A DNA stretch of 64,000 nt from Pelagomonas calceolata (GCA_918797485.1 CAKKNE010000001.1:930001-994000), one strand, 5' to 3'; numbered from the stretch's first letter, positions 35,969-55,127 are shown. Notes: a model not told the origin generated them from the sequence alone. Program-made: numbers and translations.

Positions 35969-37538
35969 TTAGACAAAACCTCCTCCCTCACCGAACCACC
36001 CCGCTGCGCCGAGGCCACTCCGGTCGCCGCGTGCGATGGACGTCTGGCGCTCCGCCGATGGCACAGAAGTCTGCGCCGCGCTCCGGTTGTCCGGCGCGAC
36101 GCGCGGTGGTAATGCCACATCATCCCACGCCAGGTCGGCAAACACGGGCGCGTGATCGGACCTGTGTGGAAATCAACCAGTGGCGTCGGGTGCACCGACA
36201 ATTCTTCACTAAGTCATTTCTCGGCGATGCCGCGGCCGTCCTGGCTTGGTCGAGCGGTGAGGAACCGGCATCGCCACGCCATCGAGCAGGCGTCGCGTCG
36301 ATGGCGTGGAGGTCGACGCGATGATTCAGAACGAACGCGCCGTAAAACTTTGATTTCCACACAGGATCGGACAACGCCGACGGCACGCAGTCGTACGCTT
36401 TACAGGAGACGGCGTCGCCCCTCCATATAACCCGGTCGCACCACGCCGGCCGCCTATTTTGTTTATACCGCAAGGCGTCCTCGTCGTTCCTGATTAACTT
36501 ATAGGTCGGCGGGAACGCTAGATCCGCCTCCCTAAACCCCTCGAAGGCGTCTCCACTATCAATGGCATCGATTAATTGATCCCGCGACCGCAGCGTGTCC
36601 CAGTCCTCTTTCTCGATAGCATCGACGACGTCCCGCCAAATGTCCTCTTTGGGCGTCGCCGCCTTCTCCGGGCTACCCCCCGCTACCAGTTTTTCGGCGC
36701 CGGCCGTCGCGCCCGCGCCGACGGCCGCGCCACCCGCCACCGCCGCGCCGACGCCAACGACAGCCACACCCACGCCCGTCGCCACGGCCGCGGCGCCGCC
36801 CACCACCGCGCCCGCTACGACCGAGGCTCGCCTCGCGAAGGAAGGCGAGGGCGGCGGCGGCGCGTCGCCCTCATCTCCAAGCCGGTAGTTCAAATCGCCC
36901 TGCCAGATGACGACGTCCGCGTCTAGTACACCAAAACCCTCCGAGGGCACGGGGCCTATCAGCTGCCACAGTCTTGAGCCTCTTATAGCGTCGCCTAACG
37001 CCGAATGTTCCTCGGGAACACACCTCGTATTCACAATTTGCGCGTACTCGGCGTTCCTCGCCGCTACTTGATCCAAATCGGAAGCCATGTGCGCGTGGAC
37101 GACGTGGAAATATGTGGATTTGCACGGCGTCATTCGCATCACGACCGCACCTTTATTGCCGAGTGCGCCTCCTAGACTTCCGGTGGCGATGGTCGATACG
37201 TCCACACCTACCAAAGTATCGGGCTTGGCGAAGACGAAGAGGGCCACGCCCACGAGGCCGCCGGACGTGATCTCGGTGTAGGCATCACCCAACGCGTTTC
37301 GGCATTTGACGCGCCAGCTTTCTACCCTTCTCGTGCGGAAGACGCTGTCCGTTTTTATGGAATCTCTGAGTACCGTTCCTGGGTCCAGATCGACGACCTC
37401 CACCAGTCCACAGCAGACGACGTCCGCGTCCGTGGCGGTGAGTTGTGCCAGTATGCTATCGAGCCGCTCGGCGTCTTTCGCTTCTAAATGTTCTACATCT
37501 AGGCCGCAGACATTCCAGGTGAAGGTGCGGAGCTTCAT
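35969..37538 (-). CDS. Inositol polyphosphate 5-phosphatase; 211-bp introner intron 36162-36372
   Basis: TWNV, GNKGAV, WQGDLNYR, FPPTYK, PAWCDRVIW; splicing restores catalytic SDHAPV. Confidence 0.92.
36162..36364 (-). mobile_element. Introner element (203 bp), perfect 15-bp TIR, 8-bp TSD GATCGGAC
   Basis: ctgtgtggaaatcaa 36162-36176 / ttgatttccacacag 36350-36364; TSD copies at 36154-36161 and 36365-36372. Confidence 0.95.
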
Positions 37539-37760
37539 TTCTTTTGTGTTTTTGCTATCTCGTAGCTCCGCCTCGCAGTGGAATGGGCGTTTTCCTGTGC
37601 AGCACAAAAAGCCTCTCTGAAGGCTGCGAGGCTGGGGAGCGTCGGACGCCCGTTGCTTTGGCGGATGGTCGAGCAAGCGTCGACAGCGTATATTTTAGGC
37701 AGAGCTCGATGGCTATATGGCTTTGGGCTTGTCTTTTAGAGCCGCGTCCGGCCCGCCTGG

Positions 37761-37789
37761 GCTTGCTAGTGTCTTTACATGCCGCTAGC
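37761..37789. promoter_or_regulatory. Conserved CTAG element
   Basis: gcttgctagtgtctttacatgccgctagc in a divergent intergenic region. Confidence 0.55.
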
Positions 37790-38103
37790 TCGAGCCGAAC
37801 GATACAAAGCTTTTCTATGGTCTGTTTGAGCTCTCACGACAACTAAAGGAGATCGTGAGGAGGTTTGGTTCGGAGCCTCGAAAACATGGTCAAGCTCTGC
37901 GGTCACTGCTTGAGTGCTTGATATCGCCCGTGCTACGGGCGTTTTCGCGACGATTTTCCGCACCTAAAGGACGCCGCGACCGACAGAAGTATCGCTAAAA
38001 CGCGATCTGTGACACCAAGCCTTCACTTTTGGAATCACACTGAGCTCAGGGCGATATGGATCCGGAAGGCCGCGGGAGGCCCGGGAGACGGCCAGCGACG
38101 ACA

Positions 38104-39756
38104 ATGCTGGCGCTGTTCTTCCTATTCAGGGCTGCCGCGGGCCTGGCCCCGGCGCCCAGCACCACCTCGCGCACCTATCTGGGCTCCCTGAGCACTCCCG
38201 CCACAGCTGACGCCGAGGCCGCCGAGGCGCGCACCGCGCCCGCCGAGGCCGCCGCCGCCCCCGCGCGGCGGCGCCGGCCCCTGGGCCGCGCCGCCGAGGC
38301 GCTGCGCGAGAAACGCGCGGCCGAGGCGCCGTATCTTGACGGTCTCGATAGGCGGCAGTGGCTCACCACGACCTTCGCGCGCGAGCGCGGCGAGGCGGGC
38401 CGCTACCTCGCGACGCTGAACGAGCGCGGCGCGGCGAACAAGCTCGACGAGCTGCGGAGCCGCGAGGCGGCGACCACCGATTATTACTTGGAAGGCTTGG
38501 ATCGACGTGGCTGGACGGCGACGGCGTTCAGCCAAGAACTCGCGCGGCGCGAGCGCGAGCGGCGACGGGAATCGTTGACGGTGGCGCGGAAGCCCTCTGT
38601 CGTCTCTCTTGTCGAGGATGCGCCGCCGGTACTCGCCCCTGCCGTGGAGATCTACGCGAGCGACCTGCCCGCGACTGTAGATGTGGCTAGCATCGAGGCC
38701 GCCGCGAGCGCGATCGAGCTCGTCGCCATCACCGACCAAATGAATGATGCGGTAAGTGAGGTCCTGGAAGAGGCCGCCCTCTCGATACCAGAAGACGAGG
38801 AGTCAAGCTTGGCCTGGAAGGGCGCCATGCTCTTCGTGACGGTCGCGTGGGCCACGAACTTCGCCGTGACCGCCTATGCTTGTGCCGACATCTCGGCGAG
38901 TACCAGTTTAGGTGCGTCCGAGGCGGCTGCCGTCTTTGTGGTGTTGCGGTTCGCGGCGGCGGCTCTCTCGACATTACCTTGGTTAATTGCTTCCTCTACC
39001 AAGGAAGCCGCGATAGCCGGCGCGAAAGTAGGTGCGTTGTACGCTGTCGGTTATGGTGCCCAAGCGGCGGCCTTGGCCCACGGCTTTCCCGCGGCGAACG
39101 CGGCGTTCGTCTGTTCCCTACAATGTGTCGCAGTAGCTCTACTAGCCAAAGGGCAAACGCCTCCTCGGACAATAGTAGGGCTGATCCTAGCGATCTCGGG
39201 CGTCGCGTGCTTGGAGTTGTTGGGTGCCAACGGCGGAGACTTCGACCCCGTCGGTTTAGCATTAGCGTTGGGCCAGCCGTTAGCTTTTGGGGCCTCGTAC
39301 GTCGAGCTCGAGCGGGCGACGCGGGATCACCCCGACGACGCCTTGGCGATGACGGCGCTGCAATGTTTAGCTATCTTCGGTGCGGGTGTGGGGGCCTTGG
39401 CGGCCATGGAGGGTTTCGATGGTGCTTTGAGTGATGTGCTGGCCACCGTAAATCACTTGGACGCGCCTTTAGCAGCTTCCGTAGCATGGACTGGAGTGAT
39501 CAGTACATCATTTACGATCTGGCTGTGCACGGAGGCGTTCAAGCACCTGCCTTCAGTCGATGCGTCGTTGATCTTGACGTCGGAGCCGCTCTGGGCGGCG
39601 CTCGTGGCCGCGGCTCTGTTAGGCGAGCGGTTCTCGGCCGGCGACGCGTTAGGTGGATTGCTCATCGTGCTCGCCGTGGCGGTGAACGACGAGCTCATCC
39701 GCGTGCCAGGCCGCATGTGCCTCGCGCCGCACTGCGTCGTCGAGGAAGACGAGTGA
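38104..39756 (+). CDS. EamA/DMT-family transporter with N-terminal extension
   Basis: About 10 TMs; WATNF, LRFAAAAL, ANAAFVCSL, ASLILTSEPLWAAL; signal/transit-like N-terminus. Confidence 0.85.
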   Translation: MLALFFLFRAAAGLAPAPSTTSRTYLGSLSTPATADAEAAEARTAPAEAAAAPARRRRPLGRAAEALREKRAAEAPYLDGLDRRQWLTTTFARERGEAGRYLATLNERGAANKLDELRSREAATTDYYLEGLDRRGWTATAFSQELARRERERRRESLTVARKPSVVSLVEDAPPVLAPAVEIYASDLPATVDVASIEAAASAIELVAITDQMNDAVSEVLEEAALSIPEDEESSLAWKGAMLFVTVAWATNFAVTAYACADISASTSLGASEAAAVFVVLRFAAAALSTLPWLIASSTKEAAIAGAKVGALYAVGYGAQAAALAHGFPAANAAFVCSLQCVAVALLAKGQTPPRTIVGLILAISGVACLELLGANGGDFDPVGLALALGQPLAFGASYVELERATRDHPDDALAMTALQCLAIFGAGVGALAAMEGFDGALSDVLATVNHLDAPLAASVAWTGVISTSFTIWLCTEAFKHLPSVDASLILTSEPLWAALVAAALLGERFSAGDALGGLLIVLAVAVNDELIRVPGRMCLAPHCVVEEDE

Positions 39757-39910
39757 GGTTCCGTTCCGTGAGCCGCCCTCCGCGGCTTGATTCCATTCGT
39801 GCCGGCGCCCGCAAGGGCGCGGCTTCGTGTACCGTAATGTGCGTTTTTACGATATAGCTTTCGCCGGGGGCCTACGACTGCGAGATAGATGTTGTTACAC
39901 AGAGCGAGGA

Positions 39911-41730
39911 TCACTCGACGCGCGTCGCCGTCCGCCGGAGCTCCGCGAAGAGGTCGACGACCGGGGCCGCGGCGACAGGCTTCGGCGGTTTCTGCTTGGC
40001 GGCCTTGATCGCGTCGAGGAGACCTACAGGAGGCCCGGCGGAAGGCCCGTGCAGCCTTGCGACCATGGCGGCGCGCGAGCCGTCGCCGCCCGACAGCCGC
40101 CGCGGCGCGGGCCGCGCGACGCGCTCGCCCCAGGCGTCGCCCTCCGTTGGGACCTCCCGCGCCTTCCGCGCCTCGGCCACGGCGGCGAGCTCGGACGCGC
40201 GGTCCACCGCCTCGTCGTTTTTCGCGACGGCCGCAGCCGGCTCGTACGACGTCGCGTCAAACGGGAGCGCCGCGGCGTCGGCCCAGGCTTGAGGTCCAGC
40301 CGCACCGGACGCGGCGGCGGCGACCAACTTGTCTCGAATGGCCTCGGCCCACTCCTGTTTCTTTCCGTCGCCGTCGTTTTCCCACGCCGCCGGGAGCGAG
40401 GCGTATACGGCGCGCAGCTCGTCCAGGCTCAGGCCGCGCGCGTCGTAGGCGCCGCGTAAGTCCGCGACGTGCATTTTTGCGATCGTAGACGGCGCCATTC
40501 GCACGAGCCACAGGGCCCGGACTCGTAGCACGCGCGCCGCGAGCTTCGGGGGCAAACCCTGCTCGACCAGCCGCTCGACCGTCCAGCCGTGCCTCACGTC
40601 CGGCGGTACCGCCGCGCGGACCGTCGCGAGCGCCGTGGCATTCGCGTCGGCGTTCGCGGCGTCCCAGGCCGTCCGCCGCGCGGCCTGCTCCGCCACGTAC
40701 TCCGGGTGGCCGCGGACGACGGCGTCCCAGCGCTCGACTTCCACTTCGACGGACGCGTCTCCCGCGACGAGCTGCGCCACGGCATTCTTCAGGCACCGCC
40801 GCGCCTCGGCGAGCGTCATGGGTGCTGCTTCCTTGGCGTCGTCGGGGACGACGCCGCGGCACCGCTTTAGTACAGCCACGACGGCCTCGACCTCAGCTAC
40901 ATCCAAAGGGACGTCGCCGTTCCGCGCTTTCTTCAGCCACGCCGTCGCCGCCTTCTCGGCCTTCGACGACGGGCTGTTCGACGCGCGCAGCGGCGACAAC
41001 GCGTCGTCTTCTTTTTTACCGGTGAGCCCCGCCTCGATCTTCCTCGACAGCGCCTCATCATTCTCAACCCAGGCCGGCCGCGCCGCGCCGCACCAGCCGC
41101 CGCCGAGCATCTCCTTTCGTACGTCCGCGGCCCGCCTCTCCTGCGCCTCGCGCTTCTTCTGGCCGGCGCGCGCGGCGAGCTCCGCGGCGCGATTCAGCCG
41201 CGGTCGCACGGGCGCCCTAGCACGCGCAATGCTGGCGCGCCGCTTGAGGGCCTCGGCCTTCGACGGTTTTGCTTTCCCGATCGCGACGGACTGGCGGCGC
41301 GCGCGCGACGCGTTCGTGTCTCTTGGTTTGAGGGCGCGCTTCGTTCTACGAGCGTGGGCCTGCGTGCGGTCATGTGAGTTATCGCGGCGACGGCGTGGCG
41401 GAGACACCGGTCACGCGCAGTATGTTTCCCGACGCGCCGCAGGCAGCGCGTCAGCGTCAGGGCGGCGCGGCGCTCGCGGCGCGCCGCGAGCGTTTCTAGC
41501 CTCGCCGCGAGTTGCCGGAGGCGCGCCGGCGGGGGGTGAGCGTACGCGCAGTGCGTGACGGCCGCTTCTAGCAAGGTGAGTGCCGTGGCGCCGTCGACTT
41601 CTAAGAAGGTGAGGGCGTCCTGCTGCGGCGGCGGCGTCTGCTGTCGCAATGGCGGCGCGTCGTACACGGTTTCGTCGACGACGTCTTCCGCGATGGTAAA
41701 AGGGAGGCTCGCTGGAGTAGGCGCGAGCAT
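39911..41730 (-). CDS. Hypothetical coiled-coil protein; GC-AG intron 41360-41418
   Basis: Two ORFs joined by ACT|GCGCGT...CGCAG|GCC; LSLDELRAVYASLP..WENDGDGKKQEW. Confidence 0.65.
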
Positions 41731-42138
41731 CCTCGATACGTCAGACGGCCTGGGTCCGCCAGCGGGTCCGGAGGGCCGGGAAAATGCGCCGCGCAAGTTG
41801 CTCGGCGCGGAGGGCCGTATCGCAGCGTCTGGACCGTCCGGCGAGCGGCTGCGTCGTACACAGGCCCCCGCAGCTTCGTTTTACTGCTGAGGCGGTCCAC
41901 TGAGCCACAGGCGCCGTAACGGCGCAGCTTGGCCGTGTTTTTGGCGCAACGTGCTCGAGTTATCTAGCGTATAGAAACACACTAGCGCCGGAGCGCGTAC
42001 CTTGAGCTAACAATAATAGCGCGCGTAGCTGCGGCCCGCGCCCGCCGCCAATGAAAGGACACCCGTATTCCTCCTCACCACCACAAGACACACCTACCAC
42101 GAGACGCCATCGCCGCGAGACCCCACGATACAAGTCGA

Positions 42139-44482
42139 CTACGACTCCTTACTCGACGATGGCGACCGCTCGAAGACGCGCATCCAGAGCCCGTGCTCCG
42201 TGTGGATCGTCGCGCCCGTGCGCATGCCCACGTCGGCGACGGGCAGGCCCCCGAGCCCCGTCTTCGGCTGGATCGATTCCGGATTTTTCAGCGCGAACTC
42301 GAAGTCGAGCTCGTGGATGATCGACGTCAGCATCACGGTAGCCTCCAAAATAGCGAACTGGTCCCCGACACACCTTCTGTTGCCCGCACCGAAGGGCAGA
42401 TACGCGTAATCGGCACTCTGCTCCGTCGGATACAGGGCTTGCGAGGGAATTTTGGCCGGGTCGAAGCCCCGCCAGCCCGCCGGCGCGTCGGGCCCCGGCT
42501 CCTTCTTGCGCTCCCACCTAGAAGGGTCAAAAGACTCAGGATCGTCCCACAGCTTCGGGTCCTTGTGCAGCGACCACGTGCTCATGAAAATGTCCGACCC
42601 TCGAGCTGGAGTTACTTTTGGGCTATCGGGGAACGGTCTAGGTAGTTCATCCGAATCCAAAGCTCGTCTGATGAGTAACGGAGGCTGGGGGTAGAGCCTC
42701 AGACCCTCCGCTAAACAGAGACGTATGAAGGGCACGTCCAGTACATCTTCGTACACTGATCCAGTCCTGTTCTCCGCCGCGCGCTTCGCGAACACGGCAT
42801 CGGCCTCCTCCCGAGCTCTTTGTAAATGATGCTTCGAGCGACCAGAGGGATGGAACAACTCGTACAGCGTCCAGGTTAATAAAGCTGCAGTCGTCTCGTG
42901 GCCGGCGACGAGCATCGTCATCAGATCGTCCCGTAACTGCGTCGCCGAGGCCTCCTCGCCGCGCACCGTCACGAGGAAGCGTAATAATGATGTATGCTTG
43001 ACTTCATCCTCATCAGTAACTTCTTGGCCGGCCTCCCTATAAACTTCGTCTCCCATGCTCGCGATGTCGTCGAAGGCCTTGGTCACGAGCTCTTCCAGCT
43101 TCGTGTTGAGCAGGTCGAGGTCGTTGTTGAACTCCTGCTGCGACGGGAGGAGCTGCGCGCCGGGGATGAGCCAGTACGGGATGAACGCCGTCGTGCGATG
43201 CTCCGCTTCCACCAAACATCTATAAACAGCCCTTACTAATGGAGACTCCGACGACGCACTTTCAAAGTCGTAGTCGAAGACGGCCCGCCCAATAATATCC
43301 AAAGCTGCCGAACAGAACCGTTCCTCCATGTCGACCGCGCCCGCCTTTCTCGCCGGCGCGTCGTCCTCGTACTTCCAGGCCTTCCACGCGTCGACGGTCT
43401 CCGGTAAAGGTGCAGTGGGATCCACGGACCGCGCTCGTTTCCGCAAGTCCACTAGCAGGTCCTCCGTGCAGTCGTCGAAAAGGGCCAACGTACTTCGCAA
43501 CCACTGCTTGTGGAAGGCCGGCGAGATGACGCGCCGCCGCGCCTTCCAGACGTCGGGGTCCGCTGGGATTAATCCATTACCTAGGATCGGCGCCAAGATC
43601 TCGGCCAGGATGCCTTTGTCGAAGTTCTGGCTTCCATCTCGGAGCAGGTATCGCGCAATGCTCGGGTCGGCCACAACTATAAAAGAGCGAGGCCCGAAGG
43701 CCAGTTTGAACACGGGCCCGAGCTCCCTATGGTACTTCGTGAGGAGTAGGAAGAGGGGACCCCCTACCAAAGTTTGTAGGTCGCCGGCCGCGACACTCCC
43801 AAAGAACGTCTTGGGGCCCGCCCTCTCCAGAGCTCCCTGCCAGTCCCAGGACGCCACCTCGGCACCGTCCTCCGAATCATTGCCCAGGATGAACTGGAGC
43901 AGGTTGTTGAATAAAATACGAAACGAGTCCTGGAAGCCCGGTTTACTTCCAGGATAGCTAGACTCGGCGTAGGCGGCGTAGACACTCTCGGGCTCGACCT
44001 CAATAAATCTTCGCCAGAACTTCGGGCCGCCGTACATCTCGGGCACGTCCTCGAGCTTCCGCCTGCGTGGAACGAGACCGTCGCGAAACTGCCCTCGCGT
44101 GACGACGCGCGTCGATGGCGTAAGGAAGGTCATTGAAGCTCCCACGCCGAGTCACTGACCTCAGTTTTTCCATTTCCCAGTCGAAGCCCTCCTTTTCGCC
44201 CTCCTCCTCCCAGGCCGAGGACCATTCTTCCATTAACGCTTGTTTGTACTTGTCGGCTTTCGCTTCCTTGAGGGCCTCCTCGTCCGTTCCTAATACACTG
44301 AGGCGCGTGCGGCCGGCGCGGCCGAGCGGGCCGCAGCGCCGTCGCGCCGGGCGCAAGTGGGGCGGCGGCGCGCCGCCCGCGCCGCGCGCCGGCCGGAGGC
44401 CCGCGCGGCGCGGCGGCGGCGCCAGGGAGCCCGCGAGGGGCGCCAGGGCCGCGCACAACGCGAGGATAGAAGAGCTACGCAT
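42139..44482 (-). CDS. Cytochrome P450, CYP97-family carotenoid hydroxylase; intron 44063-44159
   Basis: FDKGILAEIL, AGHETTAA, EGLRLYPQPP, PFGAGNRRCVGDQFA; plastid-type presequence. Confidence 0.92.
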
Positions 44483-44836
44483 TTGTTCAAGACGGCGGCA
44501 AGGTCTGCGCGCGGCGCACGGCTGGCGCGTCGCGTGGCTTCCAGAGGCTGTCCCGCAGCTCCCCCGCCTCGTATCGCTGCTCGGCTCACGCCCACTGAGG
44601 CTCTCGACTGCTACTTGCGTCGCGTGCCCCTGGATTTTAGGCTACGTGAGAGGTACTAGCTCCTAGTATGTCTACGCTATCTCCTTGGAAGATCGCGGCT
44701 GCCGAAAAAAACACTGGCGACGGCCGTGTTTTTGGCTTACTTTGCCATCAAGCGGTCTAATATACCGCTAAGTAATCGAGGAGGCTGCAACACGTGTGAC
44801 GGTAGGGCAGCGAGCACACACTGCCCACCCACACAA

Positions 44837-45631
44837 ATGATGCCATCTTCGTGCTGCCGGGCCGCATGGGTTTTCGCGCTACTGGCTAGCGACAGCTCCG
44901 CTCTAAGTGCAGGGCCACCCACAAGCCGTGCACGCATCACTGCCTTGAGTGCAGGGCCACTCGCGCGCCGTCCGCGGCCGTGGCGCCGGAGGTTACTCAG
45001 TCAGCCGAGCGACGACGCCGCCCCGGCGAGGCCGAAGCGTTTCCGGCAGCTCCTCGTGCCAATCAGCGTGGGCGGCCTCGCGGCCGTCGAGCTCAGCACG
45101 AGCCTGTGGGAACTCGGTCATCATCACGGGCTGGCGATGCTGGCCCTGTCGCGGGGCGCGCACGCCGTGACTGATTTAACCCAGTCGGGCGCCGACGCGG
45201 TGGAGACCGTCGTCGAGGTCGTTTCCGAGGTCGGTGCGGAGGCCGCGGCGGCGGTACGGACGCACTCGACGCGCTTATCTCGGTTGTTCACGCCGAAGAG
45301 GATCCGCAACCTCTCGGTCGCGGCGCTGTTCGCCGCGGCCTGGGAGGTATACCAGGACCTGAGGCCGGGCGGCCATCACGGTATGGTCCTGTTGGCCGCT
45401 CACGATTTGGTTGATACGTCCACCCGCGCCTCGACGCGCGTCGCGCGGTTCCTGGGGTCGCGGTGGCTCAAGCTGACTATGGCGGTGGTCGCGCTCGGCT
45501 TCGCCGTCGTGGAGCTCGTCGAGGACTTCCTCCCGGGCGCGCACCACGGCGTGGCCGTGCTCGCGGCGGCGAACTGCGTGGCGGGCGTCGCGGAGCTGTC
45601 CGCTGCGCGGGAGCCGACGCCGCCGGCCTAA
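44837..45631 (+). CDS. Hypothetical membrane protein with three His-His-Gly repeats
   Basis: Signal/transit-like N-terminus; LGHHHGL, PGGHHGM, PGAHHGV each between hydrophobic helices. Confidence 0.65.
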   Translation: MMPSSCCRAAWVFALLASDSSALSAGPPTSRARITALSAGPLARRPRPWRRRLLSQPSDDAAPARPKRFRQLLVPISVGGLAAVELSTSLWELGHHHGLAMLALSRGAHAVTDLTQSGADAVETVVEVVSEVGAEAAAAVRTHSTRLSRLFTPKRIRNLSVAALFAAAWEVYQDLRPGGHHGMVLLAAHDLVDTSTRASTRVARFLGSRWLKLTMAVVALGFAVVELVEDFLPGAHHGVAVLAAANCVAGVAELSAAREPTPPA

Positions 45632-45898
45632 TAGTTTGTATACTAGTATATACTGCGCTACTGCGTCTTTTTCTGCGGTACAGTTCTGCGGCAGTCCGCG
45701 GAGCCAGTGTGTTGACACACTAGTTCGCTCTGCCATCAGATGATTGCCGCAATTCGCGGGGAGTCTACGGCGCAGCTGGGCGCAGCTGGGACAGACTGAG
45801 GGCCGGCAGCTGCCCGCACGCTCTGGAGGCAGCCCACAGCGCCACAATTCACCGTAGGAGGAGTTGACAGTGGACTGAAGGCAGGTGAGCGCAAACAA

Positions 45899-47113
45899 AT
45901 GGCAGCAATCGCAGCGGACGTGGACGTCGAGCGCTCGTTGCGCAGCAGTGCCACTGGCACGACGCGCAGCGCGGCGGACGGCGCCGGCCGCGTGCCGGTC
46001 ATCGACATGAGTCAATCGGACGCCGCCGAGGCGATGTGGGCCGCCGCCACGTCCGTCGGCTTCTTCACGGTCGTCAATCACGGCGTGCCGGACGAGCTGA
46101 TCGAGAACGCGTTCGCCTCGTCCAAGCAGTTCTTCGCGCGCGACCTCGACGCCAAGCAGCGCGAGAGCCCCTTCGCGCCCCAACTCAACAGCGGCTTCGA
46201 GTACTTTTCTCAAATAAGGCCGTCGACCGGCACGGCCGACCAGAAGGAAAGTCTGCAGATCACGGCGCGGGAAGGAGCCATGGACGGCCGCTGGCCCGCG
46301 GAGCCCGAAGCGCTCCAGCCCGTCGCGCGGGCGATGATGGAGGCGTCACAAAGACTCGCGGCGCGCATCTTGGACATGCTCGAGCCGCGCGCGTGTCCGA
46401 ACCTCGCGCCCGGCACTTTACAAAAGTCTCACACGCTCTGGGGCCAGGGGGGCCAGTGCACGCTGCGACTGCTCCACTACCCCCCGACGGCGCCGCCGGA
46501 AGTTGATAGCGGCCTGTGGCGCGCCGGGCCGCACACGGACTGGTGCTGCGTGACCCTGTTGTACCAGCTGCCCGGTCCGCGCGCGGCGTCCGGTCCAATT
46601 TACGGGGTGTCGCGTCGATGGCGTAAACGCGGTCGACTCACCGACCCACCACGCACAGGTCACGAGGGGCTTGAGTGCGCCGCGAACCCGCGGGCGGGCG
46701 CCGGCCAGAGCGGGTGGCTTAGGGTGGATCCGGTCGCGGGCGGCGTCGCCGTGAATATAGGGGATATGCTCTCGCGCTGGGCTGTGTGGAAGTCAAACAG
46801 TGAGTTAGGTCATCGTGAACCTCCACGCCATCGAACAGCTGCAGTTACGGGGACGACGTCGCGGCGACGGCTTGGGGCGCCCGAAATTTGATTTCCACGT
46901 AGGCGCTGGGCCGACGGCCGCGTCCTCTCGAACCTGCACCGCGTGCGCACGCCGACGGGGGCAGAGTGCGGGCGGCCGCGCCAGTCGATCGCCTTCTTCA
47001 TGCAGGCCGACAAGGAGGCGCTCATCGAGTCGTCGGGCGAGACGATCACCGCGGGCGACTACATCCTGGGACGAATCCGGTCGAACTTCGCGGCGAAGTT
47101 CGGAGATAAATAG
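45899..47113 (+). CDS. 2OG-Fe(II) dioxygenase (IPNS/DIOX-like); introns 46575-46658 and 46774-46902
   Basis: VPVIDM, GFFTVVNHGV, LRLLHYP, HTD; spliced NIGDMLSRWADGRVLSNLHRV..RQSIAFF. Confidence 0.92.
46782..46902 (-). mobile_element. Introner element (121 bp), inverted relative to the 53545 copy; TSD GCGCTGGG
   Basis: ctgtgtggaagtcaa...ttgatttccacgtag; TSD copies at 46774-46781 and 46903-46910; reverse complement matches the 53545 element. Confidence 0.92.
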
Positions 47114-47123
47114 ACTGTGAATA

Positions 47124-48200
47124 CTAGAGCTCCCTACGCCTCCTATCCCGCCGTTCTTCGCGCAACTCGACACGCCACAGCGACTTGTCCGCCGTGATCC
47201 ACGCGAAGCCGCCGCCGAAGGCCACATTCGACACCGACCGCCCCAGGTGCATTTTGGCCACGACATCTCCCGCGTCCAAATCGACCAGACAAACGCCGCC
47301 CGGGCACGACGCCACCAGCGTCTGCGAGGCCTCGTGGAACGCGAGACCATCCGAGCAGCCTTTTTTGACAAAGTCCCTGTGCACGATCTTCACTTGTGCA
47401 CCTCGTCGCAGGTAGCCGTCGCCGCGGAAGGGCCAGACCAGCCACCGTGCTTCGCCCGCCGGGCAGTCAGTTGAGTGGCCCTGGCAGCAGTCGCTCACGA
47501 CGAGGTGCGAGCCGTTCACGATACCGATGCCGTTCGGCCTCATCAAAGAACTATCGAGCACCTCCAGGTCCTTCGTCCGCAGGTCGTACCTATAAACGCC
47601 CGCAAATCCCAACTCCGACTTGTCGTCCGCGTATTGAGCGTCCGCCGGCCGGCGCTTCTCCAATAAAGCGTAGTAGGGGTCCGTGAAGTAGAGCGCGTCT
47701 GGTGTCGCGACGACGTCGTTCGGACCGTTCAGCCGCGCGCGCCCGTGTCTCTCTACAATGAGTTCCTCTTTCATGGAAGCGAGATCCAGGAACGCCAGCC
47801 TTCTCGCGCCGTGCTGGCAGACGGCTATTCTGTCGCCAACTCTAGCCATGCCGTTGCTCCCCGGCTCAAGCTGCTCAGTATCACATCCACCAGCAACGTC
47901 CACGGCGCAGCCGCCCGCGTGCTCTTTGAGTAACGTTACCGCGCCGCCTTTCCAGATGTGCAGTTTGCCCGTGATCGTGTCGCTGAAAATGAGCGCTTTC
48001 TCGTCCTCGAGCCACGTCGGCCCCTCCGGCCACGCAAAGCCTTCGGCGACGAGCTCCGGATAGTTGTCAGAGAAGATGGCGCGCCAGGCTTTTCTGTCTC
48101 CTACTAATCGCATCGCTTCCTCCGTCGTGAGTTCTTGGCCTGGGAGCGTGTCGAAGGCGTACGCGGCCGCGACGACGAGGCATGCTGCTCTTGGGACCAT
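47124..48200 (-). CDS. SMP-30/gluconolactonase-family protein
   Basis: WPEGPTW, LIFSD, GSNG, LNGPND, LYFTDP, RPNGI; signal peptide; RREL end. Confidence 0.9.
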   Translation of the reverse strand: MVPRAACLVVAAAYAFDTLPGQELTTEEAMRLVGDRKAWRAIFSDNYPELVAEGFAWPEGPTWLEDEKALIFSDTITGKLHIWKGGAVTLLKEHAGGCAVDVAGGCDTEQLEPGSNGMARVGDRIAVCQHGARRLAFLDLASMKEELIVERHGRARLNGPNDVVATPDALYFTDPYYALLEKRRPADAQYADDKSELGFAGVYRYDLRTKDLEVLDSSLMRPNGIGIVNGSHLVVSDCCQGHSTDCPAGEARWLVWPFRGDGYLRRGAQVKIVHRDFVKKGCSDGLAFHEASQTLVASCPGGVCLVDLDAGDVVAKMHLGRSVSNVAFGGGFAWITADKSLWRVELREERRDRRRREL

Positions 48201-48371
48201 TATTTATGCCGCGTCGATGGCGTGCTTGCCCTGCAGGCCAGCAATCACTGCTTCTACGCGTCGCACGATGCCGCAGCTACAGCAGCGCGATCAGTTATTG
48301 CCCGTCACGCAATGCGTGCCGGTTTTGCGCGAGTATACGAGGCTATTCCCGCAAAGGCCGCGGCGCAGACA

Positions 48372-48398
48372 GCTAGCGGCATGTAACACACTAGCAAG
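48372..48398. promoter_or_regulatory. Conserved CTAG element (reverse orientation)
   Basis: gctagcggcatgtaacacactagcaag. Confidence 0.55.
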
Positions 48399-48586
48399 AA
48401 GCACTGCCCGGGCTCTGACAGCCTCGAGCTGCCGCTCTGAAGTAAGGGCAGGCTTAGGAGTAAGCCATCGGTACCCTATCGCTGCGTGCAAGGCGCGCTG
48501 GACGAATTTGCCGCCCTACGGAGCGCTTGGACCGCAGAGCACCTGGATCCTCTGTTGAGAGCACCAGTTGCGCCTGCGCTAGAACC

Positions 48587-49516
48587 ATGGCCTGGACATT
48601 CGTTCTACTCGCAACAAGCGCCTCAGCACTCAGCGCGAACAAACCCCCGTCAATCTTGGCGATCGGCGAGACGCTCTACGACTCGCTGCCGCACGGCGTC
48701 TTTCTGGGAGGCGCGCCGTTAAATGTTGCTGTGCACGCGGCTCAATTAGGTGCCCACGCGGCCTACGCGTCGGCCGTTGGGGATGATGCCTTGGGACGGG
48801 ACGCCAAACGGCGCCTAGAAGCGTTGAGTGTGGATTGCGAACTCGTGCAAACAAGGCCCGGTCTAGAAACAGGATTCGTGAGCTGTGTCCTCGATGAAAA
48901 CGGCGACGCGACGTACGACATCGCCTACCCCGCGGCCTGGGACAGTGTTCATGCGGAGCCTTCTTTGCTGACGGCGGCGCGGTCCTTCGACTGCCTCGTT
49001 CATGGGTCCTTGGCGTTGCGAGGCGAGGAGACGGCTTCTACTTTGAGAAAGCTCGCGGCCGACGCGACGAGAAGGGTCTTCGACATCAATGTGCGGCCCC
49101 TGCCCGACGGGATTGAGGTGCGCGACCTCGTCGAACCGCTATTGCAGGGTTGTTATGTGGTCAAAATGAACGAGGACGAATTGCAATTGGTGCAGGCGTG
49201 GTTCGACCTGAAACCGGCGACGCTCGAGAAGTCATTACTTGAGTTAAATGAGGTCGTGGGGGCCGATCATCTCGTCGTGACGCGCGCGGAGCGGGGCGCG
49301 GCGCTGGTTGACGCGTCGGGTGCGTACTGCGAGAGCCCCGGGTTCGTGGTGGACGTCGTGGACACCGTCGGCTCGGGGGACTCGTTCACTGCTAGATTGG
49401 TCTACGGGCTGTTGAGCGGCGAGGCTGCTTCTGACGCGCTCGGCGCCGCGACCAGGCTCGGGTCCTGGGTCGCGTCGCAGGCCGGGGCGACGCCGCGACA
49501 CGAGTCGTTGGGGTAA
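48587..49516 (+). CDS. PfkB-family carbohydrate kinase (fructokinase-like)
   Basis: IGETLYD, GGAPLNVA, FDINVR, VKMNEDE, DTVGSGDSF. Confidence 0.92.
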   Translation: MAWTFVLLATSASALSANKPPSILAIGETLYDSLPHGVFLGGAPLNVAVHAAQLGAHAAYASAVGDDALGRDAKRRLEALSVDCELVQTRPGLETGFVSCVLDENGDATYDIAYPAAWDSVHAEPSLLTAARSFDCLVHGSLALRGEETASTLRKLAADATRRVFDINVRPLPDGIEVRDLVEPLLQGCYVVKMNEDELQLVQAWFDLKPATLEKSLLELNEVVGADHLVVTRAERGAALVDASGAYCESPGFVVDVVDTVGSGDSFTARLVYGLLSGEAASDALGAATRLGSWVASQAGATPRHESLG

Positions 49517-49537
49517 CACTAGATCACACACCACTAC

Positions 49538-52102
49538 TTAAGAAAAGCTCTCGGAAATCGCCGACGAGTCGTCCCCCTCCGCCTCGGGCGCCGACGGCAG
49601 AGAAGACCGCCGCAACATACATTGAGCGTGCTGCGCCAACGCCACGCCCAACATCATCTCCATTCCCTCCGACTCCTCGCGCAAGGACTTCAGCGCCGCC
49701 CGCATCAAGGCCAGGCGCCGCGAGTCGCCTAAATCATTTCCCTTGGCTTCGACGGCATCCCTCTTTTCGTTCGCCTCCTCGACGACAACACCTAGTTGGT
49801 CCGTCTTCGTCGCGACGCTCTTCTCGAGATCGTCTCGTTGTTGCTCGATCTCCGCCAATGTCGATCGTAACTGCATGAGCTGGTCCTTTTTTTCGGAGTG
49901 GCGCTGATCAAGGACGCCCTCGCCTCGTCTAAGCTCCTCACACGCTCGTGAAGCGTCCTGAGCGACGACCTTCGTATATGCATAGACCTGGTCCATGGCC
50001 TGCCTCTTCTCTACGTTCGCCTTCGTGAGCAGCACCCTCCTCCTCCAGCTATCCTTCGCTACTGTTTTACTTGCGAGTCGAGGCCCGACCCTCTCCAGTT
50101 CCACTTTCCAGTCATTGACCGACGTCCGCGCCTGTAAGATGGCCCGGTCCTCATTCTCGTCGACCTCGCAGAACTTGGAATCCTCGGCGACGACGTAGTC
50201 CTCCTCGAGCAGGTCGTCCTCGACGTACGAGCCGCAGTCCTCCTGGATACCATCCTCGTCACTTTCGTCGTTGGCGTCTTCCACCTTGTCGACCTGGGAG
50301 TAGTCCGGCGGCTCTATTTTAATTGATTCGATCGCTTTTCTTGATAGAAAGTCGAGCACTTGAGTTGTCGATGCGCCATGACCCTTGGCCAGATCCGGCG
50401 GTCTCGCTTGGCCGGTGAATCCGACGGCGTGACACCTATTTAGTACCTCAGTCGCTTGCTGCGACGGCGCGGCCTCGCCCACTTCCCTCGCGTCGCCACC
50501 CACCAGACTAATCAGGAACAAACACGCCGAGCAGCAGTCCGCCCACTGGACGACCGGGGGAAGGTTGACCCCCGCGCCACTCAACGCGAAGTGCGTCCTT
50601 AGTAATGGAGGCTCGTGGTTTTCTCTCCTTTTAGAAGCGTAGCCGAGCACATATAACCTCTCAACAATGCTCTCGGAGGCGCCCAGCACCTCGTGGAAGG
50701 GCTGGTCCTCCTGGAGACGGCGCCGCCTCCGGTTCCCTTCCGACGCGGCCTTGGCCACGTCGTCGTCGTCGTCGATGGCCGCCGCGCGCGCGCGGCCGGC
50801 AGACAGGGGCCGCCGGCCGCCCGACGTCTGGGGGCGCTCCTCCTCCACAAAATCGTGCGTCGCCGGGGGCGTCGCCGCGGGCCGTCGACTCCCAGCGGAC
50901 GACGGTGGTCGCTCGTCTGGCGGGCTCGTCCGCCGCCGCCCCGAGCTCGTGCCCGGTCTAGCGTCGGCCCAGTCGTCGTCGCGTCGCGCACCGGCGGACG
51001 GCGGCCGCGCCGCGTCCGGCCTTCGGCCGCCGCTCGTGCCGGGCCGGGCGTCGGCGAAGCCGTCGCCCGACGCCGGCCGGTCCGGCCGCGACCGCCCGCC
51101 GCGCGTGCTCGGCCGCTCCGCCTCGCCCGACCGTGGCCGCTCCGCTTGCCCGGGCCAGCCGTCGGCCAGCGTCGCCTCCTTGGACTCGTCCCGATAGTTC
51201 CCGGGGTACTTCGCCTCCTCCGCGTGCCGCTTGGCGTCCGCCCGCGCCGCCGCCGCCGCGGACATGGTCTCCCGCCGCATCTTATTTGCTATTGATGTGA
51301 CGTGGGCGACGTCCGGGCGGTCCTTCGCGTCCACACTCAACATACTGACACAGAGCTCCCGTAGAGTACTAGAGTAGTGTTCAGGGGGTGGCGCGTAGTC
51401 GCCCTTGCTGATCTTCTGGAATAAGGAGTACAGATCCAAGCCTTCGGCCTTGAACGGCGACTTCAGCACGGCCAACTCGTACAGGACACAGCCCAGACTC
51501 CAGACATCGCTCTTCCAGTCGTAGCCATCTCCCCTCAGCACTTCGGGGGACATGTACAGCGGCGTCCCGACCTTCGAGTGGGCCTCGAAGGTGTGCTCGG
51601 ACATCATCCTCCCTAGCCCTAAATCGCCGACCTTGACCGTGCCGTCGAGCGTCAGGAAGACGTTCGCCGGTTTGAGGTCCCGGTGCAGGATGCGCCGCGA
51701 GTGCATGTGCGTGATCGCGTCGCAGATCTGCGAGAAGTACTTCCAGATGACCCTTTCTTCAAACGGTTTTCCCCGTTCATTGGCCTTTCTCACTTGCCTC
51801 TTCAAATCGCCGGCCGCCGCCCACTCGAAGACGATGATCAACTCGTCGCCATCTATCGAGCTGTCGAGGTACTGCACGATGTTGTCGTGCTGCAGCGATT
51901 GTAACAATCTAACTTCCTTGAGGCACTTTTCGCGCGCCTTGTCGTCCATGCTGTCCACCGAAATCTTCTTGACGGCGACGATGCTATCGTCCGACAGGCG
52001 TTTGGCCCGGTGCACGACCGCGAACTTGCCCTTGCCGATCGGTTTTATCAGTTCATACTTGTTGTCCATGATCGTCTGGGGCTGGGGGGCTGGCTCGGCC
52101 AT
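49538..52102 (-). CDS. NEK (NIMA-related) kinase fused to an IFT57-like domain
   Basis: IGKGKFAVV, HRDLKPANVFL, GDLGLGR, VGTPLYMSPE; C-terminal WKVELERVGPRL..KDSWR and coiled coil. Confidence 0.85.
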   Translation of the reverse strand: MAEPAPQPQTIMDNKYELIKPIGKGKFAVVHRAKRLSDDSIVAVKKISVDSMDDKAREKCLKEVRLLQSLQHDNIVQYLDSSIDGDELIIVFEWAAAGDLKRQVRKANERGKPFEERVIWKYFSQICDAITHMHSRRILHRDLKPANVFLTLDGTVKVGDLGLGRMMSEHTFEAHSKVGTPLYMSPEVLRGDGYDWKSDVWSLGCVLYELAVLKSPFKAEGLDLYSLFQKISKGDYAPPPEHYSSTLRELCVSMLSVDAKDRPDVAHVTSIANKMRRETMSAAAAARADAKRHAEEAKYPGNYRDESKEATLADGWPGQAERPRSGEAERPSTRGGRSRPDRPASGDGFADARPGTSGGRRPDAARPPSAGARRDDDWADARPGTSSGRRRTSPPDERPPSSAGSRRPAATPPATHDFVEEERPQTSGGRRPLSAGRARAAAIDDDDDVAKAASEGNRRRRRLQEDQPFHEVLGASESIVERLYVLGYASKRRENHEPPLLRTHFALSGAGVNLPPVVQWADCCSACLFLISLVGGDAREVGEAAPSQQATEVLNRCHAVGFTGQARPPDLAKGHGASTTQVLDFLSRKAIESIKIEPPDYSQVDKVEDANDESDEDGIQEDCGSYVEDDLLEEDYVVAEDSKFCEVDENEDRAILQARTSVNDWKVELERVGPRLASKTVAKDSWRRRVLLTKANVEKRQAMDQVYAYTKVVAQDASRACEELRRGEGVLDQRHSEKKDQLMQLRSTLAEIEQQRDDLEKSVATKTDQLGVVVEEANEKRDAVEAKGNDLGDSRRLALMRAALKSLREESEGMEMMLGVALAQHAQCMLRRSSLPSAPEAEGDDSSAISESFS

Positions 52103-52574
52103 GGCTGGCTGCCCTCCTCGGTGAGCGCCGCCCGGCTGCCCGCTTGTGTTCGTTGCGAGCCGCTGCTCGTGTTCTACGTGTGCGGCATGCTAGCCTTCAT
52201 CGCGCGCGCTCTGGCGTCGTCTGGCGTCTGGCAAACCAAAATCACTGTGCACCTGATTTGAGATGTTTAGCGGCGCGCGAGGCCTCGCGGTCTGCGGGCG
52301 ATACTCGTGATCGTAAGTATGCGTCCATCAGACTCGCTGGGATTTGCTCCAAAAACTCTAGAGCTCGAATCTAGCGTGTCGCCTCGAGCTCATCAGCTGC
52401 TCGACGCGTGACGCAGCGCATCGATCGTGCATCGCCGGGTATCGATAGCGCATCGCACCGGCTGGTACTGCTCGGCGGCGTCGCAGATCGGAAACCGCTG
52501 GCATCTATATTGCGCAAATCACTGCAGTGGCCTCACGCAGCTGACGCCGTCGGCGCGCAGACAGCATCACAACG

Positions 52575-54384
52575 ATGCTCCGAACAGCCGGCCGCATTAT
52601 AACAAGACGCGTCGCGCCGGCCACGGGCGCCACTCTGGCCGTAGGCTCCGCGGCCTTTTACGCGAGCGACCCCAAAACCGCGTCTAGAACGTATGTTTTG
52701 TTGACGGAGATGGCGCCCGTGATTCTAGCGTATCGGTTCGTCGAGAAGAAGCAACAAATACGGCGATATCTAAACCACGAGAACCCGCGACTGGAAGATG
52801 CCGAGTGGGAGTCACTACATAACAAGTACGCCAAAAGTACGGTAGATACGATGCGGCGCATGTTAGGATCGTATGTCAAACTAGGACAGTTTTTGGCGTT
52901 GCGGCCGGACATTGTCCCACAAGTCTGGACCGATGAGTTACGAACGCTGGAATCTGCCGTGCCCGCGCAAAGTACGGAATTAGTCCACGAGACCATACAA
53001 AGAGCCTACGGGAAGAATGTGAGCGAAGTTTTCGCGACCTTTGACGACAAACCCGTCGGGAGCGCGTCCATCGGCCAGGTCCACAAAGCTACATTAAAAG
53101 ACGGCACTCGCGTGGCAGTAAAGGTCCAGTACGGTGCCGGCAACGAACAAGTGATGAGGAATGACATCAAACACGGCAAGGAGCTGTTTAAGTGGCTCGC
53201 TCCCGAACAAGTCGCCGTCCTCGACGAGGTCGAGGCGCAGTTCGCGACCGAGTTCGACTACCGCCGGGAGGCGTCCCATTTGTCAGCAGTCAGAAATAAT
53301 CTACGAAAGGCGGGTTTCCTGGGCAGTTGGTGGCGGAGAGGTGTCGTCGATATTCCAGAACCGATCAGCGAGATGTGCACGAAGGAAGTGCTGGTGATGA
53401 AATTTCTCGAGGGCGACAATTTGGTCGACGGCATCCGAGCACTCGGCGAGCGCGCGGCTCGTAGGCAAGGCCTCACGTTAGATGACTTGAAAAGAGATAT
53501 GTTGATAAATTTTGAGCGCGAGGGCTACCCGGAGCCGTACAGTACTGTGTGGAAATCAAATTTCGGGCGCCCACGCCATCGACGCGATGTCGTCCCCGTA
53601 ACTGCATCTGCTCGATGGCGTGGGGATTCTACGCCATCGACGCGACGTTGACCACGTAACTGCGGCAGCTCTATGGCGTGAGAACTCAACTGGTTGATTC
53701 CCACACAGGTACAGTGGGCCGTCCCCGTTCGTCATCGAGGCGTACCGCTACGCCGATCGCGTGAAGTGCTCGCTCGTGAACGTGGGCGTGCTTTTACGAA
53801 GAAGAGTGTTAGGTCACGACGTGGCGTACGCGGAACCGTTGCTGACGGATTTTAACCCCGCGCGCGTCATGTCGACGTTGTGTCGGGTGCACGGCCACGA
53901 GCTGTTGAAGGATGGTTTGTTTAATGGAGATCCTCATGCTGGTAACTTCCTACTGTTACGAGATGGGCGCATAGGCTGCATCGACTACGGCCAGGTGAAG
54001 AAGCTCACGACGGAAGAGCGCCACTGGCTCTGCAAAGTTTATTTGGCGTTGCGCGACGACGACGCGGATCGATTAAGAGCACTAGCGAAGGAGATCGGCA
54101 TGCGAACGAGGTACAACCTCGACTACACGCGGCAAAAAATGCTCACTTTCGCGCTCGATAGAGATGGAAGGGACGTCACTGACGGCCTGAATTTCCAGCA
54201 GTTCCTCGACAAGATGTTCGCGGCCGACCCGTGGGATGAAGTCGTGCCGGTGGTCATCATGCCTTCTCGCTTGTGCATGTTTCTGCGAGGTATTGGATTG
54301 ATGATGGACCACCCTTTATCATTGGTGAAGGAGTTCGCGCCGATCGCGGAAAGGGTGCTGCGCGAGGAGGGCGTCGATTTTTAG
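52575..54384 (+). CDS. ABC1/UbiB/ADCK atypical kinase; 172-bp introner intron 53537-53708
   Basis: YVKLGQFL, GSASIGQVH, VAVKVQ, EFDYRREA, FNGDPHAGN, IDYGQVK. Confidence 0.92.
53545..53708 (+). mobile_element. Introner element (164 bp); TSD GTACAGTA/GTACAGTG
   Basis: ctgtgtggaaatcaa...ttgattcccacacag; TSD copies at 53537-53544 and 53709-53716. Confidence 0.93.
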
Positions 54385-54395
54385 TGTATGTTAAC

Positions 54396-55127
54396 TTAGA
54401 TTACTTTCCCTTCCCCGCTCCTACCGGCTTCCTCGTCCGCGGCGTCGGCCGCGCTCATCGTGTCCTTGTCGTCGGATTTGTTCGGCGCGTCCGCCGGCAC
54501 GGCCGAGGGCGACACGATGATGCGAAACGAATTGTGCGGCGCGCCGTCCTTCTTCGCGTAGACGCACGCCTCGAGGCGATCCCCGAAGCCCATCTGCGAC
54601 AACGGCTCGACGACCTCCTGATCTAAGAAAGTAGCAGGGTCTGAATTGAAATCGGGCAACAAACAAAGAATACCACTATCTTCTTTTTCATCTTTAAATA
54701 GTTCAGCCAAAGCGGGCCACACCGTCTCCGACACTGCCACTTCATCAGAACCGCCACAAACTCTCGAGTGGGAAATGGCCAGCATCTTCCGGCCCTCTTC
54801 GATGAAGTCGTCAAATTCATCGCCGAGCGGCGCCGCTTCATCGGTGTAGTCGGCCATCATGGACTTCTTCATCAACTCGGTGTGCATGTAGTCGACGAGC
54901 GCGGAAATCTTCTTCTGGTCGTCGAGCGAGTTGTCCGGCAACGCGTCGCCAGCGTAACTCTTGAGCGCGCCGTCCGTCACACCGTCGTAGAACAGCTTGG
55001 CGGCGCTCCGGTCGGCCAGGAAGCTGTCGAGGGAGGCCTGCAGCCTGGTCCGCGGCCTCGCCGGCGTGGCGCGCGGCACGAGCGCGACGGCGCCGCCGAT
55101 GACCAGTAATGCGGTTGGTCGTCGCAT
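54396..55127 (-). CDS. Hypothetical protein, probably plastid-targeted
   Basis: Signal + transit-like N-terminus, acidic globular body. Confidence 0.65.
   Translation of the reverse strand: MRRPTALLVIGGAVALVPRATPARPRTRLQASLDSFLADRSAAKLFYDGVTDGALKSYAGDALPDNSLDDQKKISALVDYMHTELMKKSMMADYTDEAAPLGDEFDDFIEEGRKMLAISHSRVCGGSDEVAVSETVWPALAELFKDEKEDSGILCLLPDFNSDPATFLDQEVVEPLSQMGFGDRLEACVYAKKDGAPHNSFRIIVSPSAVPADAPNKSDDKDTMSAADAADEEAGRSGEGKVI

Follow-up and report, generated by a model that had tools for sequence, protein, structure and literature searches.

Four short elements lying within four genes of Pelagomonas calceolata, all in one 64,000-nucleotide stretch of DNA (hereafter, the window), are in our view very probably non-autonomous cut-and-paste DNA transposons, or introners, that are removed from mRNA as spliceosomal introns. 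We put the probability of this reading at roughly 0.93, on the basis of transcript-derived proteins for two of the copies and, for one more, of RNA reads. The way in which such elements create introns is already known, and what we add to it is small: insertions that are present in some wild alleles and absent from others, one intron overlooked in a public gene model, signs that an intron with a GC donor is retained, a branch-point-like TTGAY and a shared internal motif.

Four elements with inverted ends and eight-base duplications

The four copies that a first-pass annotation had placed in the window are all there. Element c1 (36162-36364, minus strand, 203 bp) has two exact 15-bp terminal inverted repeats (TIRs) and a CAG acceptor at its sense-strand end; c2 (46782-46902, plus strand, 121 bp) has TAG as its terminal acceptor; c3 (53545-53708, plus strand, 164 bp) has a partial duplication inside; and c4 (20203-20257, minus strand, 55 bp) consists of little besides its ends. 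With up to three mismatches allowed, the TIR 15-mer has seven matches in the window against 0.64 expected, and none of 100 shuffles reached seven; the query was drawn from the same data, and the pairing of the ends together with the target-site duplications (TSDs) is a stronger test than this count. Indeed, the seven matches and an eighth end carrying a one-base deletion (20244-20257) make up exactly four inverted pairs, every one of them with a TSD agreeing at seven or more of its eight positions, for which the chance is about 6e-4 per pair.

The duplication is exact (8/8) for c1 (GATCGGAC/GATCGGAC, host on the minus strand) and for c2 (GCGCTGGG/GCGCTGGG, plus strand, with a GC donor). It is 7/8 for c3 (GTACAGTA/GTACAGTG, plus strand), where the intronic copy is off by one base, and likewise 7/8 for c4 (GCGTGGAC/GCGCGGAC, minus strand). 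At the four loci its sequence differs from one to the next. Both the TIR and the 8-bp TSD originally ascribed to all four copies are thus present on each, but exact duplications are confined to c1 and c2 and the exact 15-mer to three of the eight ends, which differ from it at zero to three positions. The notion of one introner family needs a similar correction: the TIR is common to all copies, but the interiors are only partly similar and there are two end-types, c1/c4 and c2/c3, the opposite end being alike in all four. Therefore, c1-c4 are a set of subfamilies and no single uniform family. Relative to their hosts, c1 and c3 share one orientation, opposite to that of c2 and c4. Read outward, both TIRs end in YAG, so that an acceptor is on offer in either orientation; the AG has been lost at a single end, the donor-side one of c4.

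When the window was searched generically for any 8-bp repeat with 12-bp inverted ends, dozens of GC-rich matches came up, which we judged by eye to be chance (the GC content of the window is 63.6%; 63% has been reported for P. calceolata). Of the four elements, this search recovered c1 and c3 only, and it disclosed no second TIR family in the window. Rfam had no matches in 36100-53800.

Sequencing depth is consistent with c1 belonging to a high-copy family of hundreds of copies or more. In run X1 the DNA depth reaches 505,066 in the bin of c1, compared with about 540-630 in unique bins, and in run X3 it is 12,066 against about 15-20, with many different flanks; this excess of several hundred times over the unique background is no copy count, as the depth of a repeat bin cannot be read as one. 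Most of the other copies of c1 are without one base, at 36182. The window itself appears to hold no transposase, in line with the first-pass annotation: a transposase domain was found in none of the 29 long ORFs scanned, out of 315 that are 100 aa or longer, which is why transposition itself is something that we infer.

Probable splicing of the elements from their host transcripts

The intron of c1 (36162-36372, minus strand, 211 nt, GT-AG) is made up of one TSD copy (36365-36372) and the element, the other TSD copy (36154-36161) being retained. Likewise, removal of the introns of c2 (46774-46902, plus strand, 129 nt, GC-AG) and c3 (53537-53708, plus strand, 172 nt, GT-AG) retains the TSD copies at 46903-46910 and 53709-53716, and that of the predicted c4 intron (20203-20265, minus strand, 63 nt, GT-AG) the copy at 20195-20202. 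All four introns are in phase 2. On the host sense strand the donor, GT for c1, c3 and c4 and GC for c2, comes from the upstream TSD and the acceptor, CAG or TAG, from the TIR in four of four copies, just as had been proposed.

The host of c1 is an inositol polyphosphate 5-phosphatase-like gene (PF22669; 35966-37535, minus strand, its ends computed from the length of protein P0330), that of c2 a 2OG-Fe(II) dioxygenase (PF14226 and PF03171; 45899-47114, plus strand) and that of c3 an ABC1/AarF atypical kinase (52575-54384, plus strand) with PF03109 on both sides of the insert. Element c4 lies in a Ser/Thr kinase (19443-21440, minus strand), which has a weak C-terminal MIT match and which we take to be ATG1/ULK-like. 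Element c1 interrupts the SDH motif of the 5-phosphatase, retained c2 leads to an in-frame stop ahead of the HRV motif of the dioxygenase, and c4 holds two in-frame stops, so that the kinase needs c4 removed to reach its C-terminal part. In-silico splicing restores SDHAPV (c1), RWADGRVLSNLHRV, the ABC1 frame (c3) and a 698-codon kinase frame (c4).

For two copies the spliced models agree fully with transcript-derived sequences. The 5-phosphatase model is identical to the MMETSP transcriptome protein P0330 at 452 of 452 residues, and the dioxygenase model to the MMETSP transcriptome protein P0134 at 333 of 333, bearing out the claim that splicing restores the protein exactly, with SDHAPV and RWADGRVLSNLHRV regained. 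For c3 the evidence comes from RNA reads. Its window-specific letters were seen in none of 71 cases at 53651, none of 66 at 53654 and none of 23 at 53672 in RNA runs X21 and X23 taken together; sense-mate RNA depth in the flanking bins is 12-22, and the c3-specific letters are present in both DNA runs. By a weak measure, the fraction of words of the c1 region that are present, RNA runs score 0.72-0.84 and DNA runs 0.91-0.93, a difference that agrees with splicing. No read spanning a predicted junction was seen among the 15 RNA joins listed, of 295, all of which come from other repeat copies. In the case of c4, a cluster look-up returned only second-exon proteins, called separately, and none of the 12 matches in a search of representatives runs across the site. 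Many RNA reads hold unspliced elements from other loci, so not every copy of the element is an intron. On the annotation side, a public genome-based model of the 5-phosphatase (P0332, 472 aa) runs on into c1 as if it were coding, with loss of the SDH motif.

The first-pass description of the introns as perfectly spliced is right as regards the sequence of the spliced product, but seemingly not as regards efficiency: on a rough reading, the GC-donor copy c2 appears to be partly retained. At 46792, 46811 and 46900, its window-specific letters turn up in 13 and 16, 10 and 7, and 6 and 10 RNA reads, respectively, all of them from the sense mate; the RNA depth of the exon upstream is about 33 in each run. 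These figures suggest that retention is very roughly 20-45%, which is an upper estimate because other copies may share those letters. Introners have been reported to be spliced on average more efficiently than other introns (PMC9860276), so a leaky c2 would be an exception. The 61 close dioxygenase proteins divide into 19 that read into c2, 9 that are contiguous at the site, 15 that are broken slightly upstream and 18 that stop short of it. The dioxygenase has a further, non-TIR intron of 84 nt (46575-46658), which we considered as a member of the TIR family and rejected, the 8-bp TSD being absent on inspection. This upstream intron is missing from 18 of the 19 wild proteins that read into c2. 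Three such proteins lie on contigs of 1276-1287 nt, close to the 1154 nt of the transcript plus 129, and these contigs look as transcripts retaining only c2 would; the c2-reading proteins on longer contigs may represent genomic alleles without the 84-nt intron.

Partial retention of c2, like the public model that runs straight across c1, is also what one would expect of plain MITE insertions that break genes, with the intact transcript proteins coming from insert-free strains or alleles. Empty alleles are indeed common in the wild, and the MMETSP and RNA-run strains, known here by their transcripts, may lack the inserts in their DNA. Nevertheless, we consider this explanation very improbable. 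Between the transcript proteins and the spliced models of the window identity is 100%, whereas other close proteins differ by several per cent, and RNA covers the genes on either side of the inserts. The decayed interiors show that the inserts are old, yet the frames past them are intact. Moreover, all six exonic targets known to us (the four in the window and two wild sites described below) begin with GY, against a background of 0.17; five of the six are in phase 2.

Filled and empty sites among wild alleles

Introners would be expected to be polymorphic and to leave a single TSD at empty sites, and this expectation of the first-pass annotation was borne out, both by an empty c2 site in the wild and by two sites that are filled in the wild and empty in the window. 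At the c2 site, metagenome contig L061 lacks exactly 129 nt and has one GCGCTGGG left. The contig is genomic, because it keeps the 84-nt intron unspliced and runs into the neighbouring gene. In a metagenome scan that yielded 13 related loci, L061 was the only close one (87%), and none carried the TIR pair. Wild alleles filled at c2 have longer and different interiors, which argues that c2 was inserted longer ago and has been losing sequence since.

At c2 the status of the site is thus seen in DNA; at c1 and c3 it is read from proteins and rests on gene predictions. Of 16 close proteins reaching the c1 site, 14 are contiguous, one of them being the transcript protein, and two are filled (the window's own model and P0304). 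One contiguous protein, P0331, is encoded on a contig of 24,657 bp, and an unspliced dioxygenase, P0122, is likewise on a contig of 24,657 bp; from these equal lengths we infer that P0331 represents a genomic empty allele of c1. The c3 site is reached by 11 of 25 close ABC1 proteins, two filled and nine contiguous. All nine contiguous proteins run into an insert with the same TIR 19 codons further, where the window has an empty target, GTGCTCGC (53766-53773, plus strand). A second empty target in the window, GCCGAGAC (19710-19717, minus strand), corresponds to a c1-type insert in the wild kinase protein P0396.

TIR matches in viral contigs (53, all single, none with the family-type subterminal sequence) were rejected as chance, among them that in contig L047, the sole one with a loose inverted partner, which is without a TSD. 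The one match in prokaryote genomes is right at the edge of a contig (L067) of a bacterial MAG, and a chimeric join is its most likely source.

The c2 and c3 sites are contiguous in more distant pelagophyte orthologs, Aureococcus included. This speaks against the idea that the introns are old and were lost in some alleles, or that they spread by an RNA route (reverse splicing), with the inverted ends serving RNA folding. The idea is not without foundation: the ends of c1 and c3 are able to pair in predicted RNA folds, an RNA-structure model has been proposed for the IEs of Micromonas (PMC4540971), and the scan of 29 window ORFs gave no transposase. However, such a history would yield neither locus-specific 8-bp duplications nor insertions in both orientations, and the intron exceeds the mobile unit, measured from TIR to TIR, by 8 nt. 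We regard this explanation, too, as very improbable.

A probable mechanism, related systems and possible intron turnover

If c1-c4 are transposon-derived introns, their origin was most likely as follows. A transposase encoded elsewhere would make an 8-bp staggered cut, and the target would be duplicated on insertion. Judging from the sequence, the symmetric TIR would supply a YAG acceptor whichever way the element lies, and a target starting with GT or GC on the sense strand would turn its upstream duplicate into a donor. Our guess is that GY at the targets is due to selection against other insertions rather than to target choice. The spliceosome would then excise the upstream duplicate together with the element, leaving the downstream duplicate to restore the codons exactly, a step supported by the transcript-derived proteins. 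The TTGAY in the TIR, whose A lies 12 nt before the end of the intron, may act as the branch point (n = 4): YAG and YTRAY (A at -12) are kept in all four acceptor-side TIRs, and in c1, c2 and c4 this is the sole YTRAY of the intron. Later, the interior and the intronic duplicate would decay and the acceptor end would be kept.

In Aureococcus anophagefferens, introners reportedly carry one splice site and recruit the other from the TSD, as Huff, Zilberman and Roy are said to have described in 2016. The fit to this mechanism, which had been pointed out at the outset, is consistent with every test that we ran. We found TIRs, a fixed-length TSD, a co-opted donor in four of four copies and many dispersed copies; exact restoration is seen for c1 and c2 in proteins and for c3 in the absence of its letters from RNA; and an empty site with a single TSD is seen in DNA for c2 and indicated at the protein level for c1 and c3. 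The scheme of carried and co-opted splice sites is the same in both genera, the comparison being one of mechanism and not of TIR sequence. The pattern in A. anophagefferens is reported to be an 8-nt cut from which introns arise whichever way the element lies (bioRxiv 10.1101/2020.10.14.339549; PMC7789003), and introners of the Aureococcus type are reported to insert into nucleosome linkers (PMC9860276). The introners of Micromonas are likewise described as MITE-like, with presence/absence polymorphism in nature (PMC11282704; Simmons et al. 2015, PMC4540971). They differ in having a 3-nt TSD, a carried donor and a co-opted acceptor, the reverse of what is seen in c1-c4 (PMC11282704). As for Pelagomonas, we found no account of introner presence/absence in the literature searched, subscription papers and picture-only supplements being outside its scope.

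Introners of P. calceolata have themselves been described in two papers. Guérin et al. (2022, PMC9481584) reported 956 putative IEs with intron lengths peaking near 210 bp, GT/GC donors, an AG acceptor and a conserved TIR. The c1 intron, at 211 nt, is close to that peak, and the donors, the acceptor and the presence of a TIR are the same; in the passages of that paper on IEs, the TIR sequence, a TSD analysis and presence/absence data are not given. Eleven P. calceolata families are tabulated by Gozashti et al. (2025, PMC12130899). One of these, fam2, has 340 copies, a length of 202 bp, a 13-bp TIR and gt (281) or gc (42) donors (sd07), and is labelled 'co-opt 5′ carry 3′' and TIR DNA / hAT. 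It agrees with c1 in length (202 vs 203 bp), in a TIR of similar length, in GT/GC donors and in mechanism, a likeness by description and not by alignment; the fam2 consensus sequence was not found in the 14 supplementary files searched. Elements c2-c4 are shorter than fam2 and may belong to other families on the list: fam24 (122 bp) and fam5 (155-160 bp) are similar to c2 and c3 both in size and in the label given to their mechanism. The available table entry for fam2 is without a TSD, whereas an 8-bp TSD is clear in c1-c4. The suggestion in the first-pass annotation that this family and its sites might be uncatalogued therefore probably does not hold for the family, which has likely been catalogued already.

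Transposons of the hAT superfamily have 8-bp TSDs and short TIRs, with (C/T)A(A/G)NG as the consensus of the TIR start. The 8-bp TSD and short TIRs of c1-c4 match this description, and the TSD suggests hAT; against it stands the TIR start CTGTG, which does not fit the consensus. No hAT transposase was found in the 29 window ORFs scanned. The hAT label of fam2 is reported to rest on a blastn match to hATv-2N1_EHux in RepBase (PMC12130899), and our search of the literature on hATv found nothing relevant.

Few sources of new spliceosomal introns have been demonstrated, introners being among them, and c1-c4 offer a clean example from an abundant ocean alga. Genome-based gene models can miss introner introns, as P0332 does by reading through c1, so catalogues of annotated introns probably undercount them. 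Public metagenomes contain both filled and empty alleles, which makes selection on new introns measurable, the cost of a GC donor included. A more far-reaching picture, which we put forward tentatively and consider rather doubtful, is that intron turnover in Pelagomonas is fast and still segregating, with at least five same-TIR sites differing between wild alleles in four neighbouring genes; that the TIR carries the whole 3′ splice signal (branch point, pyrimidines and YAG); that GC-donor insertions pay a real cost in retention; and that non-TIR introns and intergenic DNA likewise bear the internal motif G(T/G)CGATGGCGT, so that many introns of ordinary appearance may be introners in decay or sisters of introners. 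If such fast turnover were true, the birth, cost and ageing of introns would be measurable from ocean metagenomes.

Gene model of the 5-phosphatase

The public genome-based model of the 5-phosphatase gene, P0332 (window 36120-37535, minus strand), reads through the introner element c1, so that element-derived residues stand in place of the SDHAPV motif and the C-terminus. Unlike this model, the transcript-derived protein P0330 is spliced. On a separate note, about 35 bases of a bacterial MAG contig (L067, 2640-2675) match the element's end; they lie at the extreme terminus of that contig, and the match is most likely an assembly chimera.

Other possible differences between alleles of the dioxygenase and ABC1 genes

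Apart from the TIR element, the dioxygenase gene has an 84-nt intron at window 46575-46658 (GT-AG, in-frame, stop-free), which is without TIR and contains the repeated motif G(T/G)CGATGGCGT. Its counterpart in L061, the metagenome contig with the empty element site, lies at about 500-575 and differs in length from that of the window. Of 61 close proteins, 34 lack this intron and 16 have it, and it may itself be polymorphic. After GGVAV (window about 46751), 15 of the 61 proteins are interrupted; the window has no intron there. Further downstream, in the gap that separates the dioxygenase from the following gene, L061 has about 79 bases (about 915-990) that are extra relative to window 47125. 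This stretch also bears the G(T/G)CGATGGCGT motif, with a possible short duplication at its flanks.

Many wild ABC1 proteins are similarly interrupted after FDYRQE (window about 53268), a position without an intron in the window. The read-through peptides at both interruptions, GGVAV and FDYRQE, do not start with the TIR, and their likeness is to element-internal sequence. RNA reads of both strands coincide over the 3′ portion of ABC1 (window 53336-54600), an overlap probably due to the transcript of the convergent neighbour.

Repeated motifs in the window

A non-coding repeat motif with the core GCTAGTGT has nine copies in the window versus 0.78 expected, at about 904, 8500, 24232, 31906, 34724, 37765, 41979, 48388 and 55282. 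At least two of them separate divergently transcribed genes and fall in bins where the DNA depth is raised. The motif is probably a promoter element found genome-wide or a small repeat. At 6513-7339, tandem repeats of 27-36 nt lie within a long ORF, the encoded tail being Asp-rich and of low complexity.

The enrichment of G(T/G)CGATGGCGT amounts to 15 matches, both strands counted, against about 0.14 expected (window 8552, 22556, 23679, 24180, 26022, 26074, 36297, 42104, 44111, 46614, 48213, 53573, 53631, 56106 and 56768). Some of these sites fall within c1 and the ABC1 element c3; others lie between genes or in what appear to be introns lacking a TIR. It may represent a subterminal repeat bound by a transposase, a remnant left by earlier introners, or a DNA-binding site of the host.
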